NCBI GenBank assembly: GCA_036496425.1
Contig: DASXLG010000070.1
Coordinates: 6,087-70,086 of the forward strand
Reading direction: 5' to 3'
From: Terriglobia bacterium
GTDB lineage: Bacteria > Acidobacteriota > Terriglobia > 20CM-2-55-15
DNA length: 64,000 bases
This document shows, one piece after another, positions 34,681 to 64,000 of the stretch. The notes below the pieces were generated by a model, which was given only the letters and a program-made list of their open reading frames with translations, made no database searches and was not told where the DNA came from. How positions within the stretch are numbered: position 1 is the stretch's first letter; every line of letters starts with the position of its first letter. Position numbers and translations under genes: made by a program.

Positions 34681-34741
34681 GTTGTGGCTAATGTCCCCAA
34701 ATTCATGGCTTTTTTTGATATTTCAGACTAAACTTCCGCCA

Positions 34742-35656: not shown

Positions 35657-35666
35657 GAGATAATTC

Positions 35667-38099: not shown

Positions 38100-38112
38100 T
38101 AAGGAGCAGACC

Positions 38113-47989: not shown

Positions 47990-48078
47990 GAGATTCTCCC
48001 GGTTAAGTCCGATCAAAATATCATGAACGGCGCAAAAGGACGTAGCGGTATGAAGGCGGAGAATCGTTGTGAGAGCAG

Positions 48079-48270: not shown

Positions 48271-48277
48271 GTACAAC

Positions 48278-49933
48278 CTACTTCGATGCCGGAGCGCCTT
48301 TTGCGCCCATCAGGGATTGAAGCAAGGCGACCGTCTCCGGGAACGGTTCCGGAGCCGGGCCGCCGCGGGCGCCTCCGCGGACACCCTTCGCGAGATCGAG
48401 CGCCATTCTGCCGTCGGCATCCTTCGCCTGGAGATCGGCGCCGTGCTCGGCGAGAAACTTCACGAACGGCGTGAAGCCGTGCTCGGCCGCGCCGTGCAAA
48501 GCGGTTTCGCCCGGCACCGCAAACGCACTCGGCACCTGGCTGGAACGGCCGCCGCGGCCCGCACCGGCTGACGCGCGCTGAGCCGCGCTGTCCGTCGCCA
48601 CACGACGCGGTTCAGTGAGCATGTGGGCATTGACGTTGGCGCCGGCGTCGACGAGAAGTTTCATCGTCGCAAGCACGCCTTCGTTCGTCCGGTTCCGGCC
48701 GCGCGTGACGCGCGTTCCAAATTCAACACCGGCCGCAGCCATCAGCGGCGTGACGCCTTCTTTACTCGGCAGATCGACCAGCGCGCCGTGCTGGAGTAGA
48801 AGTTCGACAAACTTGGCATCTCCGGCCCGTGCCGCGCGCAACAACGGGGTCGCGCCCTGAGCCAGAATCGAGTCGCCGCCGCGATCCTGAGGTACATCGC
48901 GGTACGGCGGCCGGCGCTTGAGCTGAATATTCGGATTCGCGCCGGCTTCAAGCAACATCCGGCCGACATCGACGGCGGTGAGCTTGTCTTCGCTCGGAAT
49001 CACGGCCATCGCGCCGTTGCCCTTCATCGGAAGCGTGCTGACATCGGCGGCCATATAGACCGGCGAACGGCCGAAGAGATCCCACTTATCGAGGTCGGCG
49101 CCGCCCTTGATCATATACGCCGCAAACTCGAAATGAAGATTCAAGAGAGCCATGTTCATCGGCGTCACGCGATCGGGATCGTCGAGATCCGGATCGGCCT
49201 TCGCCGCGATCAAGGCTCGCGCACATTCGACGCAACCTTCGCGCGCTGCGTACAACAAAGGTGTAAAACCACCCTTGTTCATGTCCTTGGGGCGCGGCTC
49301 GGTGATGACCTTGCGTTCCCATTGGTGAACCACTCCGCGCGCATTCACGTCCGCACCATGTGACGCCAGCAGCTTGATCATCTCCGCCTGGCTCTGCGCC
49401 GCGGCCCACATGATCGCGGACTGTCCGCCCCACGTCTCTTTGGCATTAACGTCCGCTCCCGCATCCAGCAGCCGCTTAGCCGCGTCGACCTTTCCGGCGC
49501 GGGCGGCTTCCATCAACGGTGTTTCGCCGTCCGGGTTCTTTGTATTCGGATCGGCTCCGGCCTTCAACAACGCATCGATGACCGGCGTCGCACCGATAAT
49601 TGAAGCTTCGGTGATCGCCGAGGTGCCGAACTGATTCATCAATTTGACGTTGGCGCCGGCCTTGATCAGCGCGCGCACGAGGTCGAGGTCGTTATTCGCG
49701 GCCGCGTACATGATCGCCGTTGTGCCGTCGGGGCCAACCGTGTTCGGATCGGCCTTCGCGGCTAGCAACTTCAAGGCCGCCGGCCGATCGCCGGACTCGG
49801 CAGCGTCCAGAAGCGAAGGCTTCGCCGCGGTCGCGGCCCTTCCCACGACAAAGGAGACGGAACACAAGAAGCACAAAAAGCACAAGAGAGCCATTCTTGT
49901 GCCTCTTGTGTTCCTTCCCTGTTTCCTCTGCAT
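48278..49933 (-). CDS. Secreted ankyrin-repeat protein, module 4; the N-terminal signal is supplied by a palindromic repeat
   Basis: MQRKQGRNTRGTRMALLCFLCFLCSVSFVVGRAATAAKPS, then ankyrin repeats (DGTTAIMYAAANNDLDLVRALIKAGANVKLMNQFGTSAITEA...). A GGAGG Shine-Dalgarno sits 7 nt upstream inside the DUF1501 3' end. There is a 1-nt spacer between the DUF1501 stop and the ATG. Confidence 0.8.
   Translation of the reverse strand: MQRKQGRNTRGTRMALLCFLCFLCSVSFVVGRAATAAKPSLLDAAESGDRPAALKLLAAKADPNTVGPDGTTAIMYAAANNDLDLVRALIKAGANVKLMNQFGTSAITEASIIGATPVIDALLKAGADPNTKNPDGETPLMEAARAGKVDAAKRLLDAGADVNAKETWGGQSAIMWAAAQSQAEMIKLLASHGADVNARGVVHQWERKVITEPRPKDMNKGGFTPLLYAAREGCVECARALIAAKADPDLDDPDRVTPMNMALLNLHFEFAAYMIKGGADLDKWDLFGRSPVYMAADVSTLPMKGNGAMAVIPSEDKLTAVDVGRMLLEAGANPNIQLKRRPPYRDVPQDRGGDSILAQGATPLLRAARAGDAKFVELLLQHGALVDLPSKEGVTPLMAAAGVEFGTRVTRGRNRTNEGVLATMKLLVDAGANVNAHMLTEPRRVATDSAAQRASAGAGRGGRSSQVPSAFAVPGETALHGAAEHGFTPFVKFLAEHGADLQAKDADGRMALDLAKGVRGGARGGPAPEPFPETVALLQSLMGAKGAPASK
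49859..49914. repeat. Palindromic repeat family 1, copy D
   Basis: Arm 1 is ggaacacaagaagcacaaaaagcacaagaga. Arm 2 is tcttgtgcctcttgtgttcc, a shortened reverse complement. It encodes RNTRGTR-MA-LLCFLCFLCS on the minus strand. Confidence 0.8.
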
Positions 49934-49934
49934 C

Positions 49935-51221
49935 TTAGACCTCCGAAAGAACCTTATCGCTGTCGCCGATCGACTTCACCGGGATATCGTTGCGGTCGAA
50001 GATCGTCAGCAACAGGTTGGCGTGCCGCGAATCCTGCGGATACTTCAGATGCTGGCCGCCTTTGATCTTGCCGTGCGCATGGCCGAGCAGAGCCGAGGGC
50101 AGCGGATCGTTGTTGTGGCGGTCGCTGTTGCTCATATTGCTGCCGAACAGGATCGTCGAGTGATCGAGAATAGTGCCGTCGCCTTCCTGTGCCGCCGCGA
50201 TGTGCTTGATAAATCCGGCAAACACTTCGGTGTGGTACTTCTGGATCTGGACCAGCTTATCCATTTTTTGCGGATTGTTTCCGTGATGCGACAGAGGATG
50301 GAAACCCTCGGCGATGCCGAGGTTCGTGTAGGTGCGCATGCTGGCTTCGCGATCCATCGACATCGTGATGATGCGGGTAATGTCGGCCTGGAACGCGAGC
50401 GACATCAGATCGAACATCAGCTTGAAATGTTCGGTGATGTCGTTGGGCGTGCCGACCGGTGCATCGGGAATGTTCAGTGCCGCGGTGTCCTGTTTCTCCG
50501 CCATCTGGACGCGGCGCTCGATCTCGCGAACCGAATCAAGGTAGTCGCCCACCACAACGCGGTCACGCGCGCCGAGGCCGGCCTGCAATCGTTTGGCTTG
50601 CGCCTGCACACGGTCCAGAATGCTGTCGGTTTCGTGCAGAATTTCCGCGCGTTCTTTATCGGTGTCGCCCTGGCCGAATAGTTTCTGGAACACCGCGCGG
50701 GGATTGCCTTCCTGCGGCAGCGACTGCGTCGGCGTCCGCCAGGACAATCGGGCGCCTCCTTGAGCGGTCGTGAGTTCCAGCGACGGCAGCCGCGTATCCT
50801 GACCGACGTAGCGCACCAGCATCTGATCGGCGGTAACGCCGGCATCCTTACCGGCAACGCCCATATCCCAAGGCTTCACACAGCTTAACCACGTCTGCTC
50901 GATGTAGGCGTGGGGCTCCGGCGTTTCTCCCTGTTTGTTGCGCAAACCCGACACGATGGTCAGGTGCTGTCGATACGGCGCCAACGGCTCGAGAATCGGC
51001 GACATCTCGTAGGCCGTGCCGGTCTCCTTCGGCGACCAGTGATCCATGATTGCGCCGTGGGGAAATCCGATAAACGCGAACCGTTTCGGCGTTGAACCGG
51101 CGGCCGTGGCTGCCCACGCAGTGGCGGCAGGACTCATCGCATCCAGGAGCGGCAGCCCGATCGTGGCTCCGATGCCCTTCAATACCGTGCGTCTCGAAAT
51201 ATGCTTCTTGTCGATAAACAT
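49935..51221 (-). CDS. DUF1501 family protein (Tat-exported), module 4
   Basis: MFIDKKHISRRTVLKGIGATIGLPLLDAM, with the family blocks FIGFPHG and HS.ILFGSNMSNSDRHNNDPLP. Length is 428 aa. Confidence 0.85.
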   Translation of the reverse strand: MFIDKKHISRRTVLKGIGATIGLPLLDAMSPAATAWAATAAGSTPKRFAFIGFPHGAIMDHWSPKETGTAYEMSPILEPLAPYRQHLTIVSGLRNKQGETPEPHAYIEQTWLSCVKPWDMGVAGKDAGVTADQMLVRYVGQDTRLPSLELTTAQGGARLSWRTPTQSLPQEGNPRAVFQKLFGQGDTDKERAEILHETDSILDRVQAQAKRLQAGLGARDRVVVGDYLDSVREIERRVQMAEKQDTAALNIPDAPVGTPNDITEHFKLMFDLMSLAFQADITRIITMSMDREASMRTYTNLGIAEGFHPLSHHGNNPQKMDKLVQIQKYHTEVFAGFIKHIAAAQEGDGTILDHSTILFGSNMSNSDRHNNDPLPSALLGHAHGKIKGGQHLKYPQDSRHANLLLTIFDRNDIPVKSIGDSDKVLSEV

Positions 51222-51247
51222 GACGTATCTCCCCTATCGAAGATTGC

Positions 51248-53692
51248 TTATTTGCTCGCTACCTTACTCGCAACTGCCGAGGTCTGAGGCACGCGGCGCA
51301 TTCTGAACTGGTCGCTCCGGACGATCGCCTGAACGATCGTCGAGAATTTGTAGTTATCTTTGGACGCGTCGCGGACAATCCGCCGGACGGTCGGCATGTC
51401 GTAGTACTGGACGGTGCGCCCGCTTGCATACATCAACAAGCGTTCGGTAAACGTCTGCACAAACTGGTCGGGCCGCTTCAACAGCGCATTGCGCAGATCG
51501 TCGGGCCCTTTTAGCGGTGTACCGTCGGGCAACTGACCCGCGGAATCAATCACAGTTCCCGCATAACGATCGCGATCCCGCCACATGCCGGTCGCGTCGA
51601 AGTTTTCGAGCGCAAAGCCGAGCGGATCCATGATTGCATGACAGGATGAACAGGCCGCGCTCGACCGGTGCTTCGCCATCATCTCGCGGACGGTCAGCGC
51701 CTTCGTGGTGCCGATATCTTTTTCATCGAGCGTGGGGACGTTGGGCGGCGGGTTTGCAGGCGGCACACCTTCGATGTACTGAAGGATGAACTTGCCGCGC
51801 AAGACCGGCGAGGTTCGATTCGGATAAGCAGCCGCCATCAGCACGGCGCCTTTACCGAGCAGGCCCCAGCGCACGGAATCCTTCAATTCGACGCGCTGAA
51901 AACGATCGCCTTTGATGTCGGTAATCCCGTAGTGGAGTGCAAGATGCTCGTTCACGAAGGTGTGGCTTGCCTTCAACAAATCAACGACGCTGCGATCTTC
52001 CCTGAAGATGCTGTCGGAAAACAGTGTCAGTTCGGTCTTGAAATCCTGACGCGGATCGGCCCGGCCGGAGGCATATGGAAAGACATTCTGGTCCGGAACG
52101 ATCTCGTCCAGACGCTTCATCTCGAGCCATTGTTGTACAAAATTGCTGGCCAGCGTCTCGGAACGCGGATCGGCCAGCATCCGTTTGACCTGCTTGTCGA
52201 GCGTGGCCGGATCGCTGAGTTTGTTCTTCACCGCAAGGTCCAGCAGTTCGTCATCGGGAATCGTATTCCAAAGGAAGAACGATAGCTTCGACGCGAGTTC
52301 GAGATCGTCAACCTTATAAGTCTCACCCGCCCGCACGGCTGCGGGTATGCGTTCCGCGCGATACAGGAAGAAGGGACTCGCAAGAACGCCGGTAATTGCG
52401 GTCCGGATACCGTTCTCGAAGTTGCCACCCTTTACGCCGTCCTGGTAATACTGAAGAATCTCAGTCACATCTTCATCGGTAACCGGCCGCCGGTATGCGC
52501 GCTTCGCGAGAGATGCAATGATCTGTCTGGCGCAGGCCGCCTGGACGTCCGGCTTGGCGTCATTCGCCGGATGGCAGATGAAGATGCGGTCGCGGCTGGG
52601 AGTCGCTCCAACGCCTTTGGCGTTGTACGGCCCAAGCAGTTGGAACGAGTTCACGCGGTACATCCGATCCTGCCCGCCGCCGGGTACGAACATCTGCAAC
52701 CGGTCGTCGGACTCGGCAAACGTCTTCCGTTTGAATGCCACGCCGATCTTGTGCGGCCCCGCAGGCGCGGTGAATCGGATATTCTTCAGGCGTGCATTGA
52801 CGCGGTCGAGCGCTCCGCTCTGCACCTGATCGTAGGCCTTCATGTCTTCTTCGCCGCCGATCACCGTCTGGTAAACCTGCTTGTTGTCGAGCGTGACCAC
52901 CAGCGGATTCTCGTACTCCATGCCGTTGCCCCAGATATGGGTAGCCATGTCCGCAATGTTGATCACGTATTCGCCGTCGGAGGGCAGATCCACATTTGCC
53001 AGAATGCCGCCGCGCGTACCGAGCGGCAGCCCCGCCACGTGCGTGTATTGCGTGCCGGAGGTTGCGCGGAACGTCCAGCCCGAAGGCCTTGCGTCCGGCC
53101 GCCCCATCGCTTCCACCGCTACGGAGCGCGCTGCGCTGACGTACTGTTCGATGAACGATGGAGAGACCTGCAATGCGGTCGCAATGTTGTCGAAGCCTTC
53201 GGCGGTGTCATCCTGCGGCAGGAGTGCGTTACCGTCGACATCGACAGCCAGCAGATCCCGTACGGCATTGGCGTATTCCTTGCGGTTGAGGCGGTGCAGC
53301 ACGATCTGATCGGGAATATGCATCTGACCTTCGGCATGGTCGAGAGAAGTCTCGAGCCATCCCACCAGCGAATCGACGGCCGCGGCGTCCGGCTGCTTCG
53401 AGCCCGGCGGAGGCATGACGCGGCCACGCAGCTTGCGTACAGCTTTCTCGAACAGTTCCGGATGCTGAGTAACACTCGCCGCCGTAATCCCTTCGAAGCT
53501 GACGCCGCCCGTCTTCGCGCGGTCGTTATGGCAACCGGCGCAGTACGTTTGGATGGTCGCGAGTTGCGCGTCGCCGGCCGCAGCTTGAGCCGCGGATTGC
53601 GCGGGCGAGGCAGTGAACACGCCGGCCGCGGACGCGATGAGAATTCCGGCCAGCGCAATGGCAACCGTCGGTGCGATTCGATTCTTTGTCAT
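51248..53692 (-). CDS. PSCyt/PSD multidomain di-heme family protein, module 4
   Basis: MTKNRIAPTVAIALAGILIASAAGVFTASPAQSAAQA, then ...YCAGCHNDRAKTGGV. Family blocks include HRLNRKEYANAVRDLL, LKASHTFVNEHLALHYGI and FQRVELKDSVRWGLLGKGAVLMAAAYPNRTSPVLRG. A C-terminal CSSCHAIMDPLGFALENFD is present. Confidence 0.85.
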   Translation of the reverse strand: MTKNRIAPTVAIALAGILIASAAGVFTASPAQSAAQAAAGDAQLATIQTYCAGCHNDRAKTGGVSFEGITAASVTQHPELFEKAVRKLRGRVMPPPGSKQPDAAAVDSLVGWLETSLDHAEGQMHIPDQIVLHRLNRKEYANAVRDLLAVDVDGNALLPQDDTAEGFDNIATALQVSPSFIEQYVSAARSVAVEAMGRPDARPSGWTFRATSGTQYTHVAGLPLGTRGGILANVDLPSDGEYVINIADMATHIWGNGMEYENPLVVTLDNKQVYQTVIGGEEDMKAYDQVQSGALDRVNARLKNIRFTAPAGPHKIGVAFKRKTFAESDDRLQMFVPGGGQDRMYRVNSFQLLGPYNAKGVGATPSRDRIFICHPANDAKPDVQAACARQIIASLAKRAYRRPVTDEDVTEILQYYQDGVKGGNFENGIRTAITGVLASPFFLYRAERIPAAVRAGETYKVDDLELASKLSFFLWNTIPDDELLDLAVKNKLSDPATLDKQVKRMLADPRSETLASNFVQQWLEMKRLDEIVPDQNVFPYASGRADPRQDFKTELTLFSDSIFREDRSVVDLLKASHTFVNEHLALHYGITDIKGDRFQRVELKDSVRWGLLGKGAVLMAAAYPNRTSPVLRGKFILQYIEGVPPANPPPNVPTLDEKDIGTTKALTVREMMAKHRSSAACSSCHAIMDPLGFALENFDATGMWRDRDRYAGTVIDSAGQLPDGTPLKGPDDLRNALLKRPDQFVQTFTERLLMYASGRTVQYYDMPTVRRIVRDASKDNYKFSTIVQAIVRSDQFRMRRVPQTSAVASKVASK

Positions 53693-53699
53693 ATTAAGG

Positions 53700-54632
53700 T
53701 TAGGCATCGGGTGACAAATAAGCCCACAGACTCTCGAACGCCCGGCGAACGAATTCATCGGGGTTCCCCATCTGAGCATCAAATTCCTTCGTTGGCTTCG
53801 CCGCCACGGCTTCGCCTGGGCCGCGCCCACGATTCAACAGCTGACTGAGGCGGCCGTATATCGTGCTGTACATCTCGGCCTGCTTCTTGAGGTCTTCGAG
53901 GCTCAGCACGGGACCGCGGGCAGGAACGATTTTGGTGTCGGCATTAGCCAGGGTTTGCAGGCGTTCGATGCCGCCCACGATGCCGCCGATCCATCCGCCG
54001 GTCCAATAATCGATCTCCGGCCAGCCCTCGCCTGTCGCCACATCCCCTATTGCCAACACATTCTGCTTCGGGAAATAAACGTACATGTCGCCGTCGGTGT
54101 GCGCCGCGTCGGGAACGTAGCCATAGCGGACGCCGGAATCGAGGCTGCCGGTCGTATAGAAAGTCTTGTTTGGCTGCGCCACCTTCGGGAACTTCTTGAA
54201 CTGCCGCCCGTTCCACGGCCAGGTGATGTTCTGCGTCAGCCAGAGCCGCGTGTTCTCGTGGGCAATGATCGTGGCGCCGGCCTTGCCGAGCCGCTCATTC
54301 GAGCCGGTCTGCTCAGGGTGCCAGTGCGTATTAAATAAGGTGTGGATTTTGCCGGCGCCGGGCAGCGCGGCCACGGCTTTCATGATCGCATCCGAACCGG
54401 CCGTGGAGCCGCCGTCGACAAGCAGAACGCCATCGGCTCCCGTCTGGGCGATGACATTGGCTTGTCCGGGGATCCGCAAAACGAACAAATCGTCGCTTAA
54501 TTTCAGCGGTCCCGGGTCTTGAGCAAGCCCGCGCAGGACCGGTGCGCCCAGAACGATTCCGGCCGCACCTCCGATCGCTGCTTTCAGTATTTCCCGGCGT
54601 GAATGATGACAGCTGACCTTCTCCTGATCCAT
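53700..54632 (-). CDS. Tat-exported metallo-beta-lactamase-fold protein, module 4
   Basis: MDQEKVSCHHSRREILKAAIGGAAGIVLGAPVLRGLA is a Tat signal. Motifs include NTHWHPEQTGSN and HTDGDMYVYFPKQNVLAIGD. It is a paralog of 34742..35656. Its stop is 7 nt before the PSCyt start. Confidence 0.75.
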   Translation of the reverse strand: MDQEKVSCHHSRREILKAAIGGAAGIVLGAPVLRGLAQDPGPLKLSDDLFVLRIPGQANVIAQTGADGVLLVDGGSTAGSDAIMKAVAALPGAGKIHTLFNTHWHPEQTGSNERLGKAGATIIAHENTRLWLTQNITWPWNGRQFKKFPKVAQPNKTFYTTGSLDSGVRYGYVPDAAHTDGDMYVYFPKQNVLAIGDVATGEGWPEIDYWTGGWIGGIVGGIERLQTLANADTKIVPARGPVLSLEDLKKQAEMYSTIYGRLSQLLNRGRGPGEAVAAKPTKEFDAQMGNPDEFVRRAFESLWAYLSPDA

Positions 54633-54697
54633 CTCGGTTTCGTCCTGTCTGGTATTAGGTAACCTTATATCAGGATTCGGGTTAGAAGAACATCAAA

Positions 54698-55183
54698 TTA
54701 AAGGCCGGAAAGGATGCTTTCACCTCCGCTGATGGTGCACTGGCCCGCTGACGGCTCGACCTGAAGCTTGTCCACGACGCCGTTTTTGACGATCATCGCG
54801 AAGCGCTGTCCGCGCGTCCCCATGCCGAAGCCGGAAGCGTCCAATTCGAGACCCAGGGCCTTGGTGTATGCCGCGTTACCATCGGCCAGCATCAGAACCT
54901 TGCCGTCGGCGCCCGCGCCCTTCCCCCAGGCATCCATCACGAACACGTCATTCACCGCCAGGCACGCAATTGTGTCCACACCCTTGGTTTTGATTGCCGG
55001 CGCATTCTGTACAAACCCGGGCAGGTGTGTCTTCGAACAGGTGGGCGTGAATGCGCCCGGCACCGAAAATAAAACGACGGTTTTGCCATTGAACAAATCG
55101 TCCGTCGAAATCGATCCCGGGCCTGCGGTGTTCATAACTCCGAAACTGCCGGATGGAACCTTGTCACCAACTTTAATTGCCAT
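54698..55183 (-). CDS. Peroxiredoxin (Prx5/AhpC-TSA family)
   Basis: MAIKVGDKVP...KTVVLFSVPGAFTPTCS is the Prx5-type peroxidatic Cys motif. A AGGGAGG Shine-Dalgarno lies upstream. Confidence 0.8.
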   Translation of the reverse strand: MAIKVGDKVPSGSFGVMNTAGPGSISTDDLFNGKTVVLFSVPGAFTPTCSKTHLPGFVQNAPAIKTKGVDTIACLAVNDVFVMDAWGKGAGADGKVLMLADGNAAYTKALGLELDASGFGMGTRGQRFAMIVKNGVVDKLQVEPSAGQCTISGGESILSGL

Positions 55184-55247
55184 ATCTATCCTCCCTAAAT
55201 GACTTAATGAATTTGCGCAAACATCATATGGTACAGTTTGCCGCGAA

Positions 55248-55652
55248 ATGTTCAACATCAGATCCATCGATCATCTCGTCCTTCGCGTCGTGGATCTGGA
55301 GAGGATGCTCGATTTCTACGTCAACGTGATCGGTTGTTCGACAGAAAAGATCCAGGAAGAACTCGGCCTGTATCAGCTTCGGGCAGGCAACTCTCTGATC
55401 GATTTCATTCCCGTCGACGGCCCGCTGGGTAAGGCCGGCGGAGCCGCACCCGGTCCCGAAGGACGAAACCTCGATCACTTTTGCCTCCGCATCGAACCAT
55501 TTGATGGAGACGAGATTCTAAAGTACCTGCGCGGCAAAGGAATCGATCCAGGAAAGGTAGAGTCCCGCTATGGCGCCGACGGCGACGGCCCATCCGTTTA
55601 CGTGAGCGATCCGGAAGGCAACGTCGTCGAGTTGAAGGGACCACCGTTTTAG
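55248..55652 (+). CDS. VOC/glyoxalase-family protein
   Basis: MFNIRSIDHLVLRVVDLERMLDFYVNVIGC...LDHFCLRIEPFDGDEILKYLRGKG...YVSDPEGNVVEL is a glyoxalase I / fosfomycin-resistance-like fold. Confidence 0.65.
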   Translation: MFNIRSIDHLVLRVVDLERMLDFYVNVIGCSTEKIQEELGLYQLRAGNSLIDFIPVDGPLGKAGGAAPGPEGRNLDHFCLRIEPFDGDEILKYLRGKGIDPGKVESRYGADGDGPSVYVSDPEGNVVELKGPPF

Positions 55653-55714
55653 CCACAAATTACGCCAATTAATTCGCGTAATTTGCGCAATTTGCGGCTA
55701 TCCTGACTTGCATT

Positions 55715-56233
55715 GTGAAAGCGTTCCTTATATTGGCCGCTCTGCTGCTGCCGATTGCAGCCCAGCAAACGACTCTCGACAAGACGATCGAGGGCCAGCT
55801 CAAGCGGGTGTTCCCTTCCGCCACGTCGTTTTCGGCGAAGCAGACCAGTCCGGTTCCTCACTACGTCGCATACACCGGGAATCCCGGCTCACAAACCGTC
55901 GCGGGCTACGTTTTCTGGACCACCGAGTTGGAACCGCTCGAACGCGGATATGATGGCCCGATCAAGATCCTGGTGGGCCTGGACAATACAGCGCACCTGA
56001 CCGGGGTTTTTGTCGCCGAACACCACGAGCCTTACGGCTATTTTTCCGTCGAACCTCCGGAGTTCGCCCGGCAATTTGTAGGCAAAGACATACGGGATCC
56101 GTTCAAAGTGGGCGCCGACGTCGCGGCCGTCTCGCGCGCTTCGATTTCCATCAACAGCTCGTCCCGCGCCATTCGAAACGGCGCGCGTCGCGTTGCTCGA
56201 GCACTCTTGACACCCCCGGGGACAGGCAAGTGA
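55715..56233 (+). CDS. Periplasmic FMN-binding-domain protein (the NosR/NirI/RnfG-type module, encoded as a separate gene)
   Basis: Signal peptide MKAFLILAALLLPIAAQQ. The FMN_bind-like region is ...GYVFWTTELEPLERGYDGPIKILVGLDNTAHLTGVFVAEHHEPYGY...FARQFVGKDIRDPFKVGADVAAVSRASISINSS, including the likely flavinylation site SRAS-I-S. Confidence 0.6.
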   Translation: MKAFLILAALLLPIAAQQTTLDKTIEGQLKRVFPSATSFSAKQTSPVPHYVAYTGNPGSQTVAGYVFWTTELEPLERGYDGPIKILVGLDNTAHLTGVFVAEHHEPYGYFSVEPPEFARQFVGKDIRDPFKVGADVAAVSRASISINSSSRAIRNGARRVARALLTPPGTGK

Positions 56234-57162
56234 AGTCTGCCGCGGCGCGGTTCCTCTTGATTGCTGCTTTGCTGATGGCAATGACTCCTCGTCTTATCGC
56301 GGCGCAGCAATGGAATTTCTCCGATGACGATGCCGCGCCGACCTGGATGGACGACCTCAAAGCTCAGGCCGTGGATCTGACGCTGTTCACGGCATTCGCG
56401 GCGCTGGCGCTGACCAGCTTTTTCAGGAAGAGCGAAAAGCTGAAGTGGATCACGATGGGCATCGCCGTGATCTACCTGGGTTTCTTTCGAAGCCAACTGA
56501 TCACCGTCGTCAACATCTTCGGACTTACGGTGTGGAACCTGCCGGACTTCAGACACAACCTGACCTGGTACCTGTTCGCTAGCTTCACCCTTGTGACGAC
56601 GGTCCTGTGGGGACGGGTGTACTGCGGGCGGGTCTGCGCATTCGGCGCCATGACGCAGCTCATGGATAAGGTCGTTCCGCAAAAACTGCGCATCGAATTA
56701 CCGAGGGCGCTCGAGCAGCGCGCGAATTACATCAAGTACGGCCTGCTCGGAAGCACGGTGCTGTATTTCCTGATCACGCGGGATATCTCGATCTACAGAT
56801 ACGTCGAACCGTTCTGGATGTTCTCGCTCCAGGCTCGCGTGGGAATGTGGGTAGGGCTGGCTGTACTCTTGACCGCAACCGTATTCGTGAGGAATCTGTA
56901 CTGCCGGTTTCTCTGCCCGGTCGGAGCATTTCTCGGGCTCGTTTCCAACCTGACGGTTTTCCGCATCAAGCGCTGGGGGGAATGCAACTCCTGCAAGATC
57001 TGCGAAAAGACCTGCGAATGGGGCGCGATCCGCGGCCCGAAGATTGTCGCCAGCGAATGCGTCCGCTGTGACGATTGCGAACGGCTGTATATGGATGAGG
57101 CGAAGTGCCCGCACTGGCTGATATTGAAGAGGAAGGCCGCGAAAGTGGCTTCGCAGCATTAA
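56230..57162 (+). CDS. NosR/NapH/MauN-like integral-membrane polyferredoxin
   Basis: GTG start overlapping the upstream stop (gTGA). TM helices are present with CGRVCAFGA and CRFLCPVGAF (CxxxCP-type) motifs, plus two C-terminal 4Fe-4S motifs CNSCKICEKTC and CVRCDDCERLY. Length is 310 aa. Confidence 0.65.
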   Translation: MKSAAARFLLIAALLMAMTPRLIAAQQWNFSDDDAAPTWMDDLKAQAVDLTLFTAFAALALTSFFRKSEKLKWITMGIAVIYLGFFRSQLITVVNIFGLTVWNLPDFRHNLTWYLFASFTLVTTVLWGRVYCGRVCAFGAMTQLMDKVVPQKLRIELPRALEQRANYIKYGLLGSTVLYFLITRDISIYRYVEPFWMFSLQARVGMWVGLAVLLTATVFVRNLYCRFLCPVGAFLGLVSNLTVFRIKRWGECNSCKICEKTCEWGAIRGPKIVASECVRCDDCERLYMDEAKCPHWLILKRKAAKVASQH

Positions 57163-57177
57163 TTTGATTGGCGTGGT

Positions 57178-57249
57178 TGAACATGGTGTGTGAGCGACCC
57201 CCTGCCGCCGCTTCGCGGCGGCAGGGGGTCGCTCACACACCATGTTTAT
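57178..57249. terminator. Perfect 32-bp-stem palindrome between convergent genes, likely a bidirectional terminator
   Basis: aacatggtgtgtgagcgaccccctgccgccgc-ttcg-gcggcggcagggggtcgctcacacaccatgtt. It starts 16 nt after the stop of the plus-strand polyferredoxin and overlaps the stop of the minus-strand hypothetical. Confidence 0.6.
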
Positions 57250-57734
57250 TTCTCCTCCCCGCTCTTCAGCACCTCGCACTCTCCGTAGTACTGTTCCGGA
57301 CTCGAGGTAAATCCCGGCAGCGAGATGTCGGTGTACTCATGCCGCGAATGCATGGCCTTGAGCTTTCCACCCGCCGTCTTTTTCTCCAGAACCGTGGTGA
57401 TGTAAAGCTGCCCGTCGAGAAACGATTGAATGAAGTGCAGGTAGCCGTTCGCATAGCGCACCACGATGTCGTACTCTCCCAGACCGCTCTGGAGAGCGGC
57501 GGTTCCTCCTTCGGCGTCGATCGCATCGAACTGCAAAACAAGGCTCGCCGGTTGTACTTTGGCCTCAGGTTTCTCACGTCCCCAGGTTCCGACAGCCATC
57601 AGCGGAAACGTGCACTTGATGCTTTTGACACCGGCCAATAACGGCTTCTCGGTCTGCGCACCAGAGGAACGGTACGGCACCAGCAACAAGACTGCACAGA
57701 TTATGAAGAGGACCACCGTGCGGTTCAGGAACAT
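57246..57734 (-). CDS. Secreted hypothetical protein
   Basis: MFLNRTVVLFIICAVLLLVPYRSSGAQTEKP... is a signal peptide. The protein is 162 aa, and no family is recognised. Confidence 0.4.
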   Translation of the reverse strand: MFLNRTVVLFIICAVLLLVPYRSSGAQTEKPLLAGVKSIKCTFPLMAVGTWGREKPEAKVQPASLVLQFDAIDAEGGTAALQSGLGEYDIVVRYANGYLHFIQSFLDGQLYITTVLEKKTAGGKLKAMHSRHEYTDISLPGFTSSPEQYYGECEVLKSGEEK

Positions 57735-57744
57735 GAATACTCCT

Positions 57745-57833
57745 TTATTACGGCTGCGCGCTATCGCGCTTGCGCTTCGCCTATTACGGCTGCGCGCTAT
57801 CGCGCTTGCGCTTCGCCTATTATGGCGCGTCGG
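57745..57833. repeat. 36-bp tandem direct repeat, 2.5 copies, in the ApbE/hypothetical intergenic spacer
   Basis: ttattacggctgcgcgctatcgcgcttgcgcttcgc, then ctattacggctgcgcgctatcgcgcttgcgcttcgc, then ctattatggcgcgtcgg. Each unit contains the palindrome GCGCGCTATCGCGC. The third partial unit overlaps the ApbE stop codon. Confidence 0.8.
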
Positions 57834-58884
57834 TCGGCTTGGCGAGCATTGTCAGGCGCCCTTTGATGCCCGGGGATACCAGCACTTCGTTTTTCGAACT
57901 GACGATCACGGCATCCACGCCGGGCGTCCGTTGGACCAGCGCCATGCCGGCCTCGGGGCCGAGAATGAAAACACCCTTCGATAACCCGTCGGCCATTGTC
58001 GCGCTGTTGGCAACAATCGTCACGCTGCGGCAGCCCATCGCGGGCTCACCTGTCGCCGGATCGATGATGTGATGATACCGCCGGCCGTTCCGGACAAATG
58101 ACCGCGCATAATCGCCGGACGTGCTGAACGTGCTGTCGGACAAGTCGATCTGCGCGAAGATCTGATTCTGCGGGCCGCGCGGGTCCTGGATGCCGAGCCG
58201 CCACATGTGGTTGTCTTCAAGACCCGCAGCATACATGTCGCCGCCGAACTGCACGATGAAGTCGTGGAATCCCCGGCGTTTGAGAATGTCGCTGGCGCGA
58301 TCGACGGCATACCCTTTTCCGATTCCGCCGAGGTTCACGGTCATTCCCTTCCCCTCGATGAACGCCGTTCCGGCGGCATCGTCAACCACGACCTTCCGGT
58401 AGTCGATGAGTTTTCGCTTGCGCGCGATTTCTGCAGGAGCCGGAATCGTATCGTCCTTGTTCTGGTAATCGAATTTCCAGAGGTCCGACAAGGCGCCCCA
58501 CGTGATATCGAATTTTCCCTCTGTCAACTCGCTGAGTTGATGCGCCGACCGCAGCACCTCGCGGAGCTCGGGCGCCACGCGGACGGGGTGCAACCCGGCG
58601 GCCGCGTTCAATTGTTCGACGTCGCTGGTTTTCAGCCAGTTGCTCAGCAGTCCTTCGAGCCGGTTCATTTCGTTGAACACGGCTTCGAAGGCGGCATTGG
58701 CGCCGGCTTCATCCGCGGTCCAGGCCTGAAGGTGAAGCTCTGTTCCCATCGAGGCGAAGGTTCGCTCGACGAGGTGCGCGGCGGGTTTTGGAGGTGATGG
58801 TGTCTTCGTGCAGGCGGCAAGAAGAAACAGGAAAGCCAGCCGCAGATTACGCGGATGACGCAGATGGGGCGCCACCAGGTTCAT
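57820..58884 (-). CDS. apbE: FAD:protein FMN transferase (ApbE family), lipoprotein
   Basis: MNLVAPHLRHPRNLRLAFLFLLAACTKTP carries a lipobox. ApbE blocks include ...RTFASMGTELHLQAW...FDITWGALSDLWKF...VNLGGIGKGYAVDRASDILK...IVQFGGDMYAAG...STSGDY.R.F..NG..YHHIIDP.TG.P. Confidence 0.8.
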   Translation of the reverse strand: MNLVAPHLRHPRNLRLAFLFLLAACTKTPSPPKPAAHLVERTFASMGTELHLQAWTADEAGANAAFEAVFNEMNRLEGLLSNWLKTSDVEQLNAAAGLHPVRVAPELREVLRSAHQLSELTEGKFDITWGALSDLWKFDYQNKDDTIPAPAEIARKRKLIDYRKVVVDDAAGTAFIEGKGMTVNLGGIGKGYAVDRASDILKRRGFHDFIVQFGGDMYAAGLEDNHMWRLGIQDPRGPQNQIFAQIDLSDSTFSTSGDYARSFVRNGRRYHHIIDPATGEPAMGCRSVTIVANSATMADGLSKGVFILGPEAGMALVQRTPGVDAVIVSSKNEVLVSPGIKGRLTMLAKPTDAP

Positions 58885-58914
58885 TTAATGCGCCCCATCT
58901 GCGTCATCCGCGTA
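58848..58914. promoter_or_regulatory. Perfect 27-bp-stem palindrome that encloses the apbE start codon in its loop
   Basis: attacgcggatgacgcagatggggcgc-caccaggttcatttaat-gcgccccatctgcgtcatccgcgtaat. The minus-strand ATG (58882-58884) lies inside the 13-nt loop. The structure sits 15-80 nt downstream of the DUF1501 stop at 58929. Confidence 0.5.
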
Positions 58915-58928
58915 ATATGCGGCTGGCC

Positions 58929-60257
58929 TTACAAACTCAGGCGGCCGGTGCTGTGTCCGATCTGTTCCAGTTCAACGTTCGCCAGGTCCGCCACGGCAAG
59001 CAGCAGATTTGCGGTAGGCTCTTTGTTTTCGACGGCAATATGCCGATTCCCTTTCAGCCGGCCGTTCGCTCCGCCGATCAGGGCAGCCGGAGGCGTGTTG
59101 CGATCATGCGCGTTGCCGTTGCTCATACCGCTGCCGAAGTAAATGACGGCGCGATCGAGCAGGTTGCCGTCGCCATCCGGAGTCGCTTGCAGCTTAGCGA
59201 TGAACTCCGCGAGTTTCTGCGCGTGATAGGTGGTGATTCTCGCGTACTTCTCGATGTTTTCCGGCTTGTCTCCGTGATGCGAGACCGGATGATGCGGCTC
59301 GGGAATGCCGATATGAGCGTAACTGCGGCTGCTTCCCTCATGGCCGACCATAAAGGTAAAGACGCGCGAAATGTCGCCTTGAAACGCGAGGCGCATCAGG
59401 TCATAGGTCACCGTCATGTGCTCGTCGAAGGTGTCCGGAATTCCGAGCGGCGCCGCTGCGCCCTCTGGAACCGCGGCGGCGCGAGCTTCCATGCGATCGA
59501 GTTGCTGTTCGACGTCGCGGATATTGGACAGGTACTGCTCCAGGATGGCATTGTCCGCCGGCCCGAGTTTCTTCCGCATGGCGGCGGTTTCGCTGGCGAT
59601 CGAATCCAGCATGCTCAGTTTCTCTTTCAGGTTCGCCAGCCGCTTGCGCGAAGAACCGGCTTCGCCGAACATACGCTCGAACGTGACGCGCGGATTGATA
59701 TCCATCGGCAGCGGGCTCGTATCGTCGCGCCAGGAGACGGCGTTGAAGAAGACGCAGGGATAGCCATCGCAGGCGCCGGCCGACGTGCCCATGTCTTCCG
59801 TGCCGACCTGCAGCGAGCGCATCGGCGTATCGTCGGCAATTCCATCGGCAATGAATTGATCGACGGTCTTCTTGGACCGGATCACGGTGTACTCGGCCTG
59901 CTTCGTCAGCGGACCGACTCCGTTCAACCATGCCGCGCTGGCTCCCATGTGGACGCCGCCATTCTCGGGATTGCCGTCGGGCGCCTTCATCTTGCTCACA
60001 GTGACCACATAGTTCCGATAGGGCTCGAGCGGCTTCATGATCGGCTTGAACTCGAAGTCGCTGCCGACCTTGTCCGGATGCCACAACTGCGGATAGATCC
60101 CGTTCGGCACGTAAACCGCGCCAAAGCGGAACGGCCGCACTCTGGACTGAGCGGATAGCGCAGGTGTCATGGCGTCAAGAAAAGGCAGAGCGACCGCTGT
60201 CCCGAAGGCGCCGCGAAGGAAGGTACGGCGGTCGATATGTTTCTTTGTGATGATCAT
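58929..60257 (-). CDS. DUF1501 family protein (Tat-exported), module 5
   Basis: MIITKKHIDRRTFLRGAFGTAVALPFLDAM, with the family blocks AVYVPNG and HS.VIYFGSGMSNGNAHDRNTPP. An upstream in-frame extension to 60311 is possible. Confidence 0.8.
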   Translation of the reverse strand: MIITKKHIDRRTFLRGAFGTAVALPFLDAMTPALSAQSRVRPFRFGAVYVPNGIYPQLWHPDKVGSDFEFKPIMKPLEPYRNYVVTVSKMKAPDGNPENGGVHMGASAAWLNGVGPLTKQAEYTVIRSKKTVDQFIADGIADDTPMRSLQVGTEDMGTSAGACDGYPCVFFNAVSWRDDTSPLPMDINPRVTFERMFGEAGSSRKRLANLKEKLSMLDSIASETAAMRKKLGPADNAILEQYLSNIRDVEQQLDRMEARAAAVPEGAAAPLGIPDTFDEHMTVTYDLMRLAFQGDISRVFTFMVGHEGSSRSYAHIGIPEPHHPVSHHGDKPENIEKYARITTYHAQKLAEFIAKLQATPDGDGNLLDRAVIYFGSGMSNGNAHDRNTPPAALIGGANGRLKGNRHIAVENKEPTANLLLAVADLANVELEQIGHSTGRLSL

Positions 60258-60294
60258 AGGGATGGCTCCTGTTTCCAACTGGACTCTATTGGAT

Positions 60295-62691
60295 TTAATT
60301 CGCATTTTCATCCGTTTTCACCCTCATCTGGAACGGAGAGCTCTGGATGATTCCCAGAATAATGGATTGCATCGGATAGCTATTCTTTGCGGCGCTTCTC
60401 ATGATGCTCCGCACCACCGGCATATCGACCGGCTCGAGCCCGCGGCCCAGCGCATAGATCATCAGCTTTTCCGTTACCGTTCCGACGAACACTTCCGGAC
60501 GCGCCAGGATCGCTTTGCGCAGCGCCACCGGTCCATCGACAGGAGTGCCGTCGGCAAGCACGCCGGCAGAATCGATTTTCAGGCCGTCTTTTGTGGCGGT
60601 CTCCCACTTTCCGACCGCGTTGAAGTTCTCCAGCGCAAACCCGACCGGATCGATATTGCGATGACACGCGCCGCACACTGGATTCGCGCGGTGCAGCTCG
60701 AGCTGCTGGCGAACCGTGGTCGGGCGGTCCTTGGCTGCGCTCGCTTCGAGCGCCGGCACGTTGGGCGGCGGAGGCAGCGGAGGCGTATTCAGGAAATTCG
60801 AAATGATGAACTTCCCGCGCAGAACCGGCGACGTACGATTCGCGGCCGAGGTCAATGCCAGGAGACTGCCCTGTCCGAGCAGGCCGCGGCGGTTGGGATC
60901 GGTCAAGGTCACACGGCGGAAGCGCGAGCCGTACACGTTCGGGATTCCGTAGTGGCGCGCGAGCCGCTCGTTTACGAATGTGTAGTCGGCATCCAGCAGA
61001 TCGAGCACGCTGTGGTTTTCGCGCACGATGCTGGTAAAGAATAATTCCGTTTCGCGCCGGAACGCCTGGCGGACGTTGTCGTCGAAATCCGGAAACATCA
61101 ACAGGTCGGGAGTCACCTTGTCCAGATTGCGAAGCTGCAGCCACTGCCCGGCGAAGCCGGTCATCAGGCTGTCCGCGCGCTCGTCCGCAATCATGCGATG
61201 GACCTGCGCTTCAAGAACACGCGGGTCGTGCAGGCGGCCGGCGGCGGCCAGGTTCAGGAGTTCGTCGTCCGGGAAGCTGCTCCACAGGAAAAAGGAAAGC
61301 CGCGATGCCAGTTCGATATCGGTGATGCGATGCGGCGCGCCCGGCAGCAGCGCGGCCGGATCTTCTTCCGAACGGAAGACGAAGGCCGGGCTCGCCAGAA
61401 TCCGGGCAAGTCCCGCGCGAATGCCGGCGTCGAAGTCGCCGCCGTTCTTGCGAGCGTTGCTGTAGAAATCCATCGGCGCCTTCACATCGGCCGGCGTGAC
61501 CGGCCGGCGGAATGCACGGCGCGCCACGGTCGATAGAATGGTATTGGCGCAGGCGGCCTCTTTAACGGTTGCCGACGGCTTGCAGACGAACAGCCGTTTG
61601 CGCGAAGGCGTGTCGCTGACGCCGGTAACGTTGTACGGCCCCTGAATGTTTCCGGTGCGCAGTCTCGGAATGCCCGAAGGATTGTGCGCTTCGAGGCTGT
61701 CCCGCAGCACCGGCTGCCACACGTTCTGCTCCTGCGCCGGACGCTCGATGAATGTAAATCCAATCTCGTGGGAACCGGCGGTCACCGCGAGGCGCGGCGA
61801 AATCATCCGCCTATTGATCTCTTCGCGCGAAATCACGATATTCTTCGAGCTCGACTCGTGGTCGTCCTTGCCGCCGATCGGCACGGTGAAAACCTGCTCT
61901 CCATCGACAGTGACGATGAACTGATGCGGCGTCTCCTGGCCTTCGACTCCGACATAGCCTTCGGCCACCGTATCCAGCAGCCGGCCGTAGAACACATATT
62001 CGCCATCCGCCGGGAAATCATAATGAACCAGCATGCCGCCCCGCGTACCGAGCGGCAGTCCCTCGATGTGCTGGCCCTGCGTTACCGTGGTCGGGAGCGT
62101 GAACGACGCCGTTCCCGGATCGGCTTCGGCATCGCCGACCGCCTTTTCGCTGATCTCCAGCGCGGCGCTGAGGTAGCGCTCCAGCAGAAGAGGCGAGGTC
62201 GGCAGCGCTGTCGCGATATTGTCGAACCCGAAATCGCCACCGTCGCTCGGCAGATACTCGGCGGCATCTATTTTGATATCGAGAAGATCGCGAATGGCGT
62301 TCGCGTATTCGGTCCGGTTCAGACGATGCAGGACATACCGTCCCGGATTGCTGTTCTTGGCGGCGGCCGCATCGAGGCTGGTGATCAGCGTGGAACGAAA
62401 ATTATTCAGTTCGCCGGTTCCGGGAGTCGGAGAATTTCGCGGAGGCATCGAGCCGACGCCGAGTTTCTTGACGACCCGTTCCCAGACCGCCGCATCGGCG
62501 CCCGGATCTTTGAGGTTCGCCTTGTCCAGAATGAGCGGCGCGCCGGCCGGCGTCTTCGATTTCTCGTTGTGGCAGGTGACGCAGTACTTGTTCACCATCT
62601 CCTGATACGCGGCGGGATCCTTTGCTTGAGCCAAACCGGAGGTCGCCAGAGCAAGAGCGGCGAAGGCGAAGAGAAGAAAGGCGCAACTCAA
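60295..62691 (-). CDS. PSCyt/PSD multidomain di-heme family protein, module 5 (non-ATG start; a TTG at 62691 is proposed)
   Basis: (L/M)SCAFLLFAFAALALATSGLAQA signal, then ...YCVTCHNEKSKTPAGAPL. Family blocks include HRLNRTEYANAIRDLL, LLDADYTFVNERLARHYGIPN and FRRVTLTDPNRRGLLGQGSLLALTSAANRTSPVLRG. A C-terminal CGACHRNIDPVGFALENFN is present. There is no in-frame ATG upstream of the h-region, and the R2 repeat abuts the 5' end. Confidence 0.75.
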   Translation of the reverse strand: MSCAFLLFAFAALALATSGLAQAKDPAAYQEMVNKYCVTCHNEKSKTPAGAPLILDKANLKDPGADAAVWERVVKKLGVGSMPPRNSPTPGTGELNNFRSTLITSLDAAAAKNSNPGRYVLHRLNRTEYANAIRDLLDIKIDAAEYLPSDGGDFGFDNIATALPTSPLLLERYLSAALEISEKAVGDAEADPGTASFTLPTTVTQGQHIEGLPLGTRGGMLVHYDFPADGEYVFYGRLLDTVAEGYVGVEGQETPHQFIVTVDGEQVFTVPIGGKDDHESSSKNIVISREEINRRMISPRLAVTAGSHEIGFTFIERPAQEQNVWQPVLRDSLEAHNPSGIPRLRTGNIQGPYNVTGVSDTPSRKRLFVCKPSATVKEAACANTILSTVARRAFRRPVTPADVKAPMDFYSNARKNGGDFDAGIRAGLARILASPAFVFRSEEDPAALLPGAPHRITDIELASRLSFFLWSSFPDDELLNLAAAGRLHDPRVLEAQVHRMIADERADSLMTGFAGQWLQLRNLDKVTPDLLMFPDFDDNVRQAFRRETELFFTSIVRENHSVLDLLDADYTFVNERLARHYGIPNVYGSRFRRVTLTDPNRRGLLGQGSLLALTSAANRTSPVLRGKFIISNFLNTPPLPPPPNVPALEASAAKDRPTTVRQQLELHRANPVCGACHRNIDPVGFALENFNAVGKWETATKDGLKIDSAGVLADGTPVDGPVALRKAILARPEVFVGTVTEKLMIYALGRGLEPVDMPVVRSIMRSAAKNSYPMQSIILGIIQSSPFQMRVKTDENAN

Positions 62692-62703
62692 TCGTCGTGA
62701 GCG

Positions 62704-62880
62704 ACATTCCCCGCCTTTCCAAGGCGGGGTGGCTGCGCCATCAGTAAATATCCCCAGTCCTTGATCGGCGCAGACGGGGCGGTTGGTAACTTCCGACAAA
62801 ATAAGGTGCGCTTCGCGGCAATTGTCAGGTGGCTTCGCGACATTACTAACCACCCCTACCCCTCCTTGAAAAGGAGGGGA
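62704..62880. repeat. R2 structured repeat, copy d, in the 5' leader of the module-5 PSCyt gene
   Basis: acattccccgcctttccaaggcggggtggctgcgccatcagtaaa...cggcgcagacggggcggttggtaacttcc...ccctacccctccttgaaaaggagggga. It shares its core with copies b and c, and its terminal hairpin is identical to the one at 9468-9488. Confidence 0.8.
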
Positions 62881-62897
62881 ATGCTGCTCCCGCTTTC

Positions 62898-64000
62898 TCA
62901 TTGCGCCTCTCCAGCAGCAGGCGCAGCCGCAGCAGGCGGCAATCCCATCAATTGCCGCAAAAGTTTCGCGACATCCTGAGACGAAGCCGCTCCACGTCCG
63001 CCACGGCCGCGTGCTGCTCCAGCTGCGGGCGGCGCAGTTCCGCGTTCTCCCGCGTCCTTGGCTGCCGGTTTTTTCCCTTCCACAACATCGAGGGCGGTCA
63101 GACCGTCCTTGTTCGTGGCTTTGAAATCCACGCCCGCATTGGCAAGCGCGTGGATCATATCGAGATTCCCCACTTGCGCGGCCATCTGCAGCATCGGCGT
63201 TCCGTCGGGCCCCTTCGCGTTCGGATTGGCCCCCGCTTTAACGAGCAATGCAAAAGCCTCTTCCGGCTTGCGGCTTCCGGGTTCACGGTACGGTACCGTA
63301 CCGGAGCGGATGTATCCCGGTCCGCCCGTCATCGCGGGGCCGCGGCCGCCCGTCATCGTGACCATGGCTGGTGTCTTACCGGCGTTCGGATTGCCGCGCT
63401 GCCCGCGACCGCCTGCGGCCGCCGCGTCGGCAGGCGGCGCGTCTTTGGGTGGCGCGGGAGGAACCGGGATGATTCTGTCGATATCGATGCCGTGCGCGAT
63501 CATGACCTTCAAGGTCTCGACGTCCGACTCGACCGCAGCGCGCAAAAACGGCGAATTGTCGAAACGGTCGGTGTTGGGCATCGACGTCGAATGAAACTGG
63601 CCTGCGAATGGTTTGTACGGATCGGCGCCGCGCTCGAGCAGGAGCTTCACGAGATCCAATGCGGTCAACGTGTTCGGATGGTTCGGCCGCAGCCTGGAGC
63701 CGTCGAAGGCAAACTGGTCGGTGGTGGAATCGCGCATCTCAACGGCTGTGTAGAGCGAGCCGTCGTTGACATCTGCGCCAAAATCCCAGAGCTCCTTCGC
63801 GAGATCGAAGCGGTCATTATAGATAGCGATCATCGCGGCGGAGGCGCCGTCACCGTTCTTCAGGTTGAGATCCGCTCCGGCCTGGACAAGCCGCCCGACG
63901 ACATCTTCATATCCGTTGCGCGCGGCCCACATCAGAGCGGTGAAACCACCGGTGGGATGGTCGGCATTCTTACGTTCGGTGAGCGAGTTCACGTGCGCCT
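62898..64000 (-). CDS. Ankyrin-repeat protein, module 5; the N-terminus runs off the right edge
   Basis: ...HPTGGFTALMWAARNGYEDVVGRLVQAGADLNLKNGDGASAAMIAIYNDRFDLAKELWDFGADVNDG... are ankyrin repeats. The C-terminus is Ala/Gly/Pro-rich, and no start lies within the window. Confidence 0.75.
   Translation of the reverse strand, partial: AHVNSLTERKNADHPTGGFTALMWAARNGYEDVVGRLVQAGADLNLKNGDGASAAMIAIYNDRFDLAKELWDFGADVNDGSLYTAVEMRDSTTDQFAFDGSRLRPNHPNTLTALDLVKLLLERGADPYKPFAGQFHSTSMPNTDRFDNSPFLRAAVESDVETLKVMIAHGIDIDRIIPVPPAPPKDAPPADAAAAGGRGQRGNPNAGKTPAMVTMTGGRGPAMTGGPGYIRSGTVPYREPGSRKPEEAFALLVKAGANPNAKGPDGTPMLQMAAQVGNLDMIHALANAGVDFKATNKDGLTALDVVEGKKPAAKDAGERGTAPPAAGAARGRGGRGAASSQDVAKLLRQLMGLPPAAAAPAAGEAQ

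Follow-up and report, generated by a model that had tools for sequence, protein, structure and literature searches.

A probable four-gene flavin and iron–sulfur electron-transfer system facing the periplasm in soil Acidobacteriota, with a small secreted protein paired to apbE

NapH-like flavinylated systems were defined as multi-transmembrane iron–sulfur proteins (PF12801 or K19339) clustered with an FMN_bind or an ApbE gene; 2465 clusters were catalogued, 1926 of them fused and 539 with a separate gene for the flavin mononucleotide (FMN)-binding protein (Méheust et al., eLife 2021, PMC8238504). NosR and PceC are the characterised members, other clusters are linked to NirS (133 genomes) or to the ExaA alcohol oxidase (172 genomes), and the authors described a modular pairing with differing periplasmic oxidoreductases, the reactions of most of these systems being unknown (PMC8238504). 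In NosR of Pseudomonas stutzeri and Paracoccus, a periplasmic FMN-binding domain flavinylated by ApbE is joined to a CX3CP membrane domain and a C-terminal cytoplasmic domain with 2x[4Fe-4S], and NosR has been proposed to supply a periplasmic metalloenzyme with electrons (PMC12052999). In reductive dehalogenase clusters (PceC/RdhC), PceC is NosR-like and carries a flavinylated periplasmic FMN-binding domain (PMC5928378). Here, a 64,000-nucleotide stretch of DNA from a Terriglobia bacterium was analysed over its whole length, hereafter the window (GenBank assembly GCA_036496425.1, contig DASXLG010000070.1, positions 6,087 to 70,086 of the forward strand). At positions 55,715 to 58,884, it encodes a secreted FMN-binding protein, a membrane polyferredoxin, a secreted 162-residue protein (p162) and an ApbE-family transferase (Table 1). 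These four genes probably specify a periplasm-facing flavin/iron–sulfur electron-transfer system of the NapH-like flavinylated class, typical of soil Acidobacteriota.

Profile scans were carried out with Pfam and NCBIfam against the window open reading frames (ORFs); the Pfam scan of the ORFs outside this locus was limited to those of at least 200 residues. A first-pass annotation, made from the sequence without database searches, had named an FMN_bind protein, a NapH/NosR-type polyferredoxin and an ApbE, and all three scored above the Pfam cut-offs. The 172-residue protein matched FMN_bind with 33.9 bits (cut-off 22, E 4.9e-8) and starts with a signal-like hydrophobic segment (residues 1-19); its nearest solved structure by sequence was RnfG (7zc6_G, E 2.3e-5). 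The 310-residue polyferredoxin matched Fer4_5 (PF12801) with 59 bits (cut-off 22), its gene overlaps the FMN_bind gene by 4 nt, and apbE lies 658 bp away: this is the arrangement by which NapH-like systems were operationally defined (PMC8238504). The 354-residue ApbE matched PF02424 with 281.6 bits (cut-off 25.6, E 8.6e-84) and carries the lipobox L-L-A-A-C at residues 21-25, the two features looked for in a flavin transferase of this kind, and its gene lies downstream on the opposite strand, where a lipoprotein gene had been placed by the first-pass annotation. It reached 159 bits against the NCBIfam model PRK10461 (E 1.4e-46), under the equivalog cut-off of 498, and is therefore a member of the family rather than the E. 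coli orthologue.

The polyferredoxin has a signal-like N-terminus and about five transmembrane segments, followed by the two CX3C(P) and two four-cysteine [4Fe-4S] ferredoxin motifs that mark NapH/NosR-type polyferredoxins (C132x3C136; C225x3C229(P); C252xxCxxCxxxC262; C277xxCxxC...C293P), and all 12 cysteines were 100% conserved in approximately 85 homologues. Hydropathy and charge distribution agree in suggesting an N-out/C-in topology, with the cysteine motifs in the cytoplasm. More than 4000 relatives were found, homologues carry the precomputed Pfam assignment PF27538 'NosR', and a PDB sequence search returned nothing at E <= 0.01; an exact-sequence look-up of the window protein gave no record. 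The best 120 relatives (73-92% identical, all of about 300-330 residues) came from soil metagenomes and from metagenome-assembled genomes of Terriglobia and Acidobacteria, with the JGI labels 'polyferredoxin' or 'NosR/NirI family'.

The first-pass annotation had named an SRAS segment of the FMN-binding protein as a plausible flavinylation site, and this segment stands where the canonical site is placed. The segment reads D135-V-A-A-V-S140-R-A-S143 in the window and D-[IV]-D-A-V-S-[R/T]-A-[T/S] in the family; in an alignment of 84 sequences, D135, A142 and the terminal hydroxyl residue were each invariant (84/84), position 143 being T in 62 and S in 22. In canonical ApbE substrates the motif runs D-x-x-[S/T]-G-A-[S/T] and its last residue carries FMN (PMC12052999); where this motif has G, the family has R (51 sequences) or T (31 sequences) at position 141. 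Ser143 is thus a plausible predicted flavinylation site of slightly non-canonical type.

The GTG start of the polyferredoxin gene overlaps the TGA stop of the FMN_bind gene, as read in the sequence and as stated in the first-pass annotation. A 4-nt [A/G/T]TGA overlap is kept in 91/116 related loci, most of the others having a 1-nt overlap, which shows the split to be conserved rather than the artefact of a frameshift. Neighbourhood counts drew on 80 species with one locus each; every locus except one carried an Acidobacteriota label (Terriglobia-like or Vicinamibacterales). The split had been presented as an unusual departure; the two genes are separate and translationally coupled in all 80 species, and the separate-gene form is one of the two catalogued ones.

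NosR was the top NCBIfam model for both proteins (NF046105, an equivalog of 680 positions with a cut-off of 1000 bits). The FMN-binding protein aligned to positions 7-160 (39.1 bits) and the polyferredoxin to positions 424-679 (118.3 bits, E 3e-34), both scores lying far under the cut-off. The two genes therefore match the N- and C-terminal ends of one NosR-type protein, as the first-pass annotation had said, and the 172-residue protein corresponds to its N-terminal periplasmic flavin domain. This best match, and the JGI label 'NosR/NirI family transcriptional regulator' on many homologues, speak for a true NosR (or NirI) whose client, a nitrous-oxide or nitrite reductase, would be encoded in another part of the genome. 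We regard this as very improbable, since the scores are so low, about 260 residues of the profile (160-424) have no counterpart in either protein, and p162, tried as the lacking middle domain and rejected, had no match to the NosR model. Moreover, no nos/nir Pfam family was present among the window ORFs of at least 200 residues or in the Pfam-annotated contexts of five related loci (L001, L003, L005, L087, L089), and unbiased clustering showed no recurrent neighbour family of NosZ size. With no nos/nir gene among these window ORFs, the locus is not a fragment of a nos cluster.

Whereas NosR is one polypeptide in a nosZDFYL context, the window system consists of two genes, lacks such a context and has no equivalent of profile positions 160-424. 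PceC is likewise fused, and no reductive dehalogenase gene is present here. NapH, of the NapGH quinol dehydrogenase, shares the polyferredoxin architecture with two CX3CP and two 4Fe-4S motifs, but the polyferredoxin scored below the NapH cut-offs (TIGR02163, 64.1 bits against 213, E 1e-17; PRK09477, 54.8 against 234), and no nap gene was found in the window, napG and napAB included. RnfG and NqrC are membrane-associated periplasmic FMN_bind subunits flavinylated by ApbE and akin to the 172-residue protein, which however scored under the RnfG cut-offs, and no other Rnf/Nqr subunits are encoded here. The system does not seem to be NosR proper and fits the NapH-like flavinylated electron-transfer class.

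The ORF between the polyferredoxin gene and apbE, which encodes p162, had been overlooked in the first-pass annotation and proved to be the best-conserved partner. Neighbours of the pair were counted by tblastn, with 65, 58 or 47 loci as denominator according to distance. The FMN_bind gene adjoins the polyferredoxin gene in 65/65 loci, and p162, the most constant neighbour, lies within 1 kb of the pair in 49/65 and within 9.5 kb in 39/47. In a second set of 80 metagenomic loci centred on p162, ApbE was encoded directly upstream and co-directionally in 45 of the 48 loci with enough flank, and the polyferredoxin gene was the convergent gene downstream in 18/44. From these counts, the conserved unit is FMN_bind, polyferredoxin and p162, with or without ApbE, and not a two-gene pair; the near-obligate p162/apbE pairing is the most distinctive feature of the family. 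No enzyme gene is linked to the pair as closely as p162, and unbiased neighbour clustering, with which the long shadow ORFs of these GC-rich genomes interfered, gave no further recurrent neighbour beyond lineage-specific synteny. Translational coupling of p162 was seen with the FMN_bind gene (L072) and with the ankyrin-repeat (Ank) gene of a module (L086). Lineage-specific duplications were also seen, with two copies of p162 in L036 and L042 and two of FMN_bind in L077.

Profile scans assigned p162 to no Pfam or NCBIfam family, and its homologues bear no annotation beyond 'hypothetical protein'. Among 1.84 billion representatives, a profile search yielded 639 relatives (representative clusters, E <= 1e-3), nearly all stand-alone proteins of 150-170 residues; eight longer ones had no Pfam domain and therefore offer no informative fusions. 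The protein begins with a signal-like hydrophobic segment, after which AlphaFold2 modelled a generic eight-stranded up-and-down β-barrel (pLDDT 80, pTM 0.71). Its invariant residues are C41, C153, W51, R131-H132, P146 and Y150-G151; C41 and C153 likely form a disulfide, and a loop D-I-S-L-P-G-F-T-S-S-P is conserved. As a canonical ApbE substrate p162 was rejected, for it lacks the [S/T]GA[S/T] motif and T143 of the loop is not invariant across the wider family; a substrate of the DUF2271/DUF3570 type was rejected as well, there being no Pfam match and no GA[ST] motif. An 'orphan apbE neighbour' signal of the same kind led to DUF2271 and DUF3570 as ApbE substrates.

In the mechanism that we propose, the lipoprotein ApbE, with flavin adenine dinucleotide (FAD) as its substrate, would link FMN covalently to the secreted FMN-binding protein at Ser143; the resulting flavoprotein would then dock on the membrane polyferredoxin, whose two CX3C and two [4Fe-4S] motifs are predicted on the cytoplasmic side. 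Flavoprotein and polyferredoxin would together carry electrons between the cytoplasmic/quinone pool and redox proteins of the periplasm, a role already proposed for NosR and PceC. A further conserved component would be p162, a small secreted β-barrel tied to apbE, perhaps as an adaptor or a handler of ligand or flavin. Several points weigh against this reading. Flavinylation and iron–sulfur content are predicted from motifs, and R or T stands in place of the canonical G, where a G-to-A change lowers flavinylation of a model substrate (PMC12052999). No membrane-spanning cofactor is evident that would explain how electrons cross the membrane, a difficulty shared with NosR and NapH. ApbE is found within 3 kb of the pair in only 21/58 species and so may also serve other substrates, and the partner enzymes are variable and mostly not in the neighbourhood of the pair.

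The periplasmic partner would not be fixed. Here and in the closest relatives, apbE-p162 would form the tail of an operon for an Ank protein, a PSD cytochrome and a DUF1552 protein, and elsewhere a pyrroloquinoline quinone (PQQ) alcohol-dehydrogenase or a metallo-β-lactamase (MBL)-fold gene lies in or next to the cluster. PSCyt/PSD modules have been described as abundant but without a known function (PMC5615132). The neighbouring gene of apbE had been called DUF1501; its product is a DUF1552/HXXSHH protein (PF07586, E 1.9e-77) with a twin-arginine-like signal (N-terminal ...DRRTFLRG...) and no PDB relative by sequence at E <= 1. Nor is the module of the supposed PSCyt1/2 plus DUF1501 (PF07394) type: the cytochrome is of the PSD4/PSCyt3/PSD3/PSD2/PSD5 type (families DUF1592/1588/1587/1585/1595) with two CxxCH haem motifs, C107VTCH and C743GACH, and a PDB sequence search with it returned noise only.

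The first-pass annotation had suggested that the pair feeds electrons to the PSCyt proteins. In its full form, the pair would be the dedicated electron donor of the PSCyt/DUF1552 modules, reducing the di-haem PSD proteins, which in turn would serve the Tat-exported DUF1552 enzymes; this is a candidate that we find doubtful. The adjacency on which it draws did hold. In the window, apbE and p162 trail PSD-DUF1552 on the same strand with gaps of 44 nt (DUF1552 to apbE) and 85 nt (apbE to p162), and a close relative, L089, has the whole architecture again, with Ank-PSD-DUF1552-ApbE-p162 converging on the pair; L007 is similar, but MBL and Ank genes sit between DUF1552 and apbE. Operons of the form p162-(Ank)-PSD-DUF1552, headed by p162, occur in L043 and L086. 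Of the 80 species, 6-8 have a PSD/DUF1552/Ank cluster directly against the core (gap <500-1000 bp), where 1.4-2.7 would be expected from local module density (Poisson P ~0.003-0.01, uncorrected for phylogeny and with a few overlapping cases uncounted), in several architectures: upstream or downstream, and co-directional, divergent or convergent. The five modules of the window also favour this role, as does the downhill flow of electrons from low-potential FMN/Fe-S to c-type haem. Other counts speak against a dedicated role: approximately 80% of the species have no module within 9.5 kb, PSD and DUF1552 were found within that distance of the pair in 10/47 and 11/47 loci, and of the roughly 15 metagenomic loci centred on p162 whose upstream flank reached at least 6 kb, only one had a module. 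Some adjacency is to be expected in genomes this dense in modules (22 per 1.17 Mb flank, and five in the window), and the enrichment is uncorrected for shared ancestry. The adjacency signal is real but modest, and other loci have a PQQ dehydrogenase or an MBL-fold gene in that place, the latter in L046, L050, L058 and L070.

Electrons would have to move uphill from PQQ or haem c to FMN/Fe-S, and this counts against the opposite role, in which the pair would accept electrons (periplasm to membrane) from periplasmic dehydrogenases such as those of the PQQ methanol/ethanol family, replacing cytochrome c. We judge it unlikely. Ten metagenomic loci of one acidobacterial lineage form a compact ApbE-p162-PQQ-DH / polyferredoxin-FMN_bind cluster, with a 594-residue PQQ methanol/ethanol-family dehydrogenase (562 bits against TIGR03075, cut-off 480) encoded between p162 and the polyferredoxin (L130, 8517-10301; L120, L126, L129, L131, L132, L135, L137, L138 and L149). 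The dehydrogenase gene is however 84-100% identical across the ten, which makes them effectively one lineage. The window too has a gene for a TIGR03075 dehydrogenase (534 bits; 46130-48097), which closes module 4, but it lies 7.6 kb off and in another operon. Acceptance of electrons was proposed for the ExaA-linked NapH-like clusters of 172 genomes (PMC8238504). From the pattern of neighbours, we take the system for a periplasmic redox conduit of general use, whose partners can be exchanged, rather than for a dedicated PSCyt donor.

The minus-strand genes Ank-PSD-DUF1552-ApbE-p162 converge on the plus-strand FMN_bind-polyferredoxin pair (Table 1). The gap between the convergent polyferredoxin and p162 stops is filled by an inverted repeat with arms at 57180-57211 and 57215-57246 that are 100% complementary; this hairpin occurs once in the window, its plus-strand tail is T-rich, and it is a probable bidirectional terminator. 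The repeat also gives rise to spurious ORFs, mirror images of one another on the two strands. Nested AT-rich palindromes and AATTTGCG repeats were seen at 55650-55700, in the 62 nt that separate the glyoxalase-fold and FMN_bind genes. They are not kept in the relatives L001, L005 and L007 and were dropped as an operator for want of conservation; what these three have in common ahead of FMN_bind is a promoter-like stretch, TTGCA...TACAAT. A search of 54600-59100 gave no σ70-like promoter. Just 5' of the FMN_bind gene, a peroxiredoxin gene (Redoxin/AhpC-TSA, 54698-55267, minus strand) diverges from the glyoxalase-fold gene; their annotated starts share 20 nt, and the peroxiredoxin therefore probably begins at a later ATG (MAIKVGD...).

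Table 1. Features of the locus and of the adjoining module 5 (window positions)
Feature	Positions	Strand	Basis
Glyoxalase-fold protein	55248-55652	+	ORF map and profile scan
Secreted FMN-binding protein, 172 aa	55715-56233	+	Pfam FMN_bind
Ser143 codon, predicted ApbE flavinylation site	56141-56143	+	Family alignment
GTGA start/stop overlap of the FMN_bind and polyferredoxin genes	56230-56233	+	Read in sequence
NapH/NosR-type membrane polyferredoxin, 310 aa	56230-57162	+	Pfam Fer4_5 (PF12801)
Perfect inverted repeat, 32-bp arms, 3-nt loop	57180-57246	none	Repeat search
p162, secreted 162-aa protein of an unnamed family	57246-57734	-	ORF map
ApbE-family FAD:protein FMN transferase, lipoprotein, 354 aa	57820-58884	-	Pfam ApbE (PF02424)
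DUF1552/HXXSHH protein (module 5)	58929-60311	-	Pfam PF07586
PSD/PSCyt3-type (DUF1592 family) protein (module 5)	60295-62901	-	Pfam PSD4, PSCyt3, PSD3, PSD2, PSD5
Ankyrin-repeat protein, first gene of module 5	62898-63992	-	Pfam Ank families

Five paralogous modules of Ank, PSD (DUF1592-type, CxxCH) and DUF1552 genes lie in the 64 kb, at 16861-22074, 22503-28668, 34682-40887, 46130-54632 and 58929-63992. The Ank proteins of the other four have 487-564 residues, and the Ank gene of module 5 probably runs past the window end. Two modules include a Tat-signal MBL-fold gene (34682-35656 and 53700-54632), one a gene for a 286-residue glyoxalase-fold protein (27808-28668), and module 4 ends in the PQQ dehydrogenase gene. 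Among the relatives, a second, divergent ApbE type (26-27% identical) is encoded directly upstream of the pair and co-directionally in some Terriglobia (L003, L016). In L001, the gene that overlaps the polyferredoxin stop (10924-13077) encodes a 717-residue Acidobacteria-specific VWA-domain protein (TIGR03436, 250 bits), and ApbE-p162 lies about 35 kb away on the same contig (L152). DUF6152 proteins are encoded a few genes from the pair in close relatives (L005, 12843-13265; L089, 12827-13948).

The core of the locus is a further instance of the catalogued NapH-like flavinylated conduit, with which it has in common the PF12801 iron–sulfur protein, FMN_bind and ApbE in one cluster, the separate-gene form and the links to ExaA-type PQQ enzymes (PMC8238504); the 'split NosR' aspect alone is therefore ordinary. 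Compared with that class, the window family adds a fourth conserved gene, p162, paired tightly with apbE, carries S-[R/T]-A-[T/S] in place of [S/T]-G-A-[S/T], and recurrently, in a minority of cases, adjoins Ank-PSD-DUF1552 modules. In the available parts of the text and supplements of PMC8238504, no mention was found of p162-like proteins or of a tie between PSD/DUF1552 and flavinylation clusters, and its supplementary tables, as far as available, held no DUF1552/DUF1592 accession and no 'Acidobacteria' entry. A bolder reading joins two claims: that p162 is a new component of periplasmic flavinylation (a flavin- or FAD-handling partner of ApbE, or an ApbE substrate or adaptor), and that FMN_bind, polyferredoxin, ApbE and p162 are the membrane redox link of the Ank-PSCyt(DUF1592)-DUF1552 modules of Acidobacteriota and the PVC (Planctomycetes-Verrucomicrobia-Chlamydiae) phyla. 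Taken together they are speculative and quite unlikely; if true, they would give the first experimental handle on module function. As it stands, a redox conduit found repeatedly, though in a minority of the genomes, next to Ank-PSD-DUF1552 modules and PQQ dehydrogenases offers a handle for experiments, and its significance would rise if p162 turned out to be a new participant in periplasmic flavinylation, or if the PSCyt modules had the conduit as their redox link.

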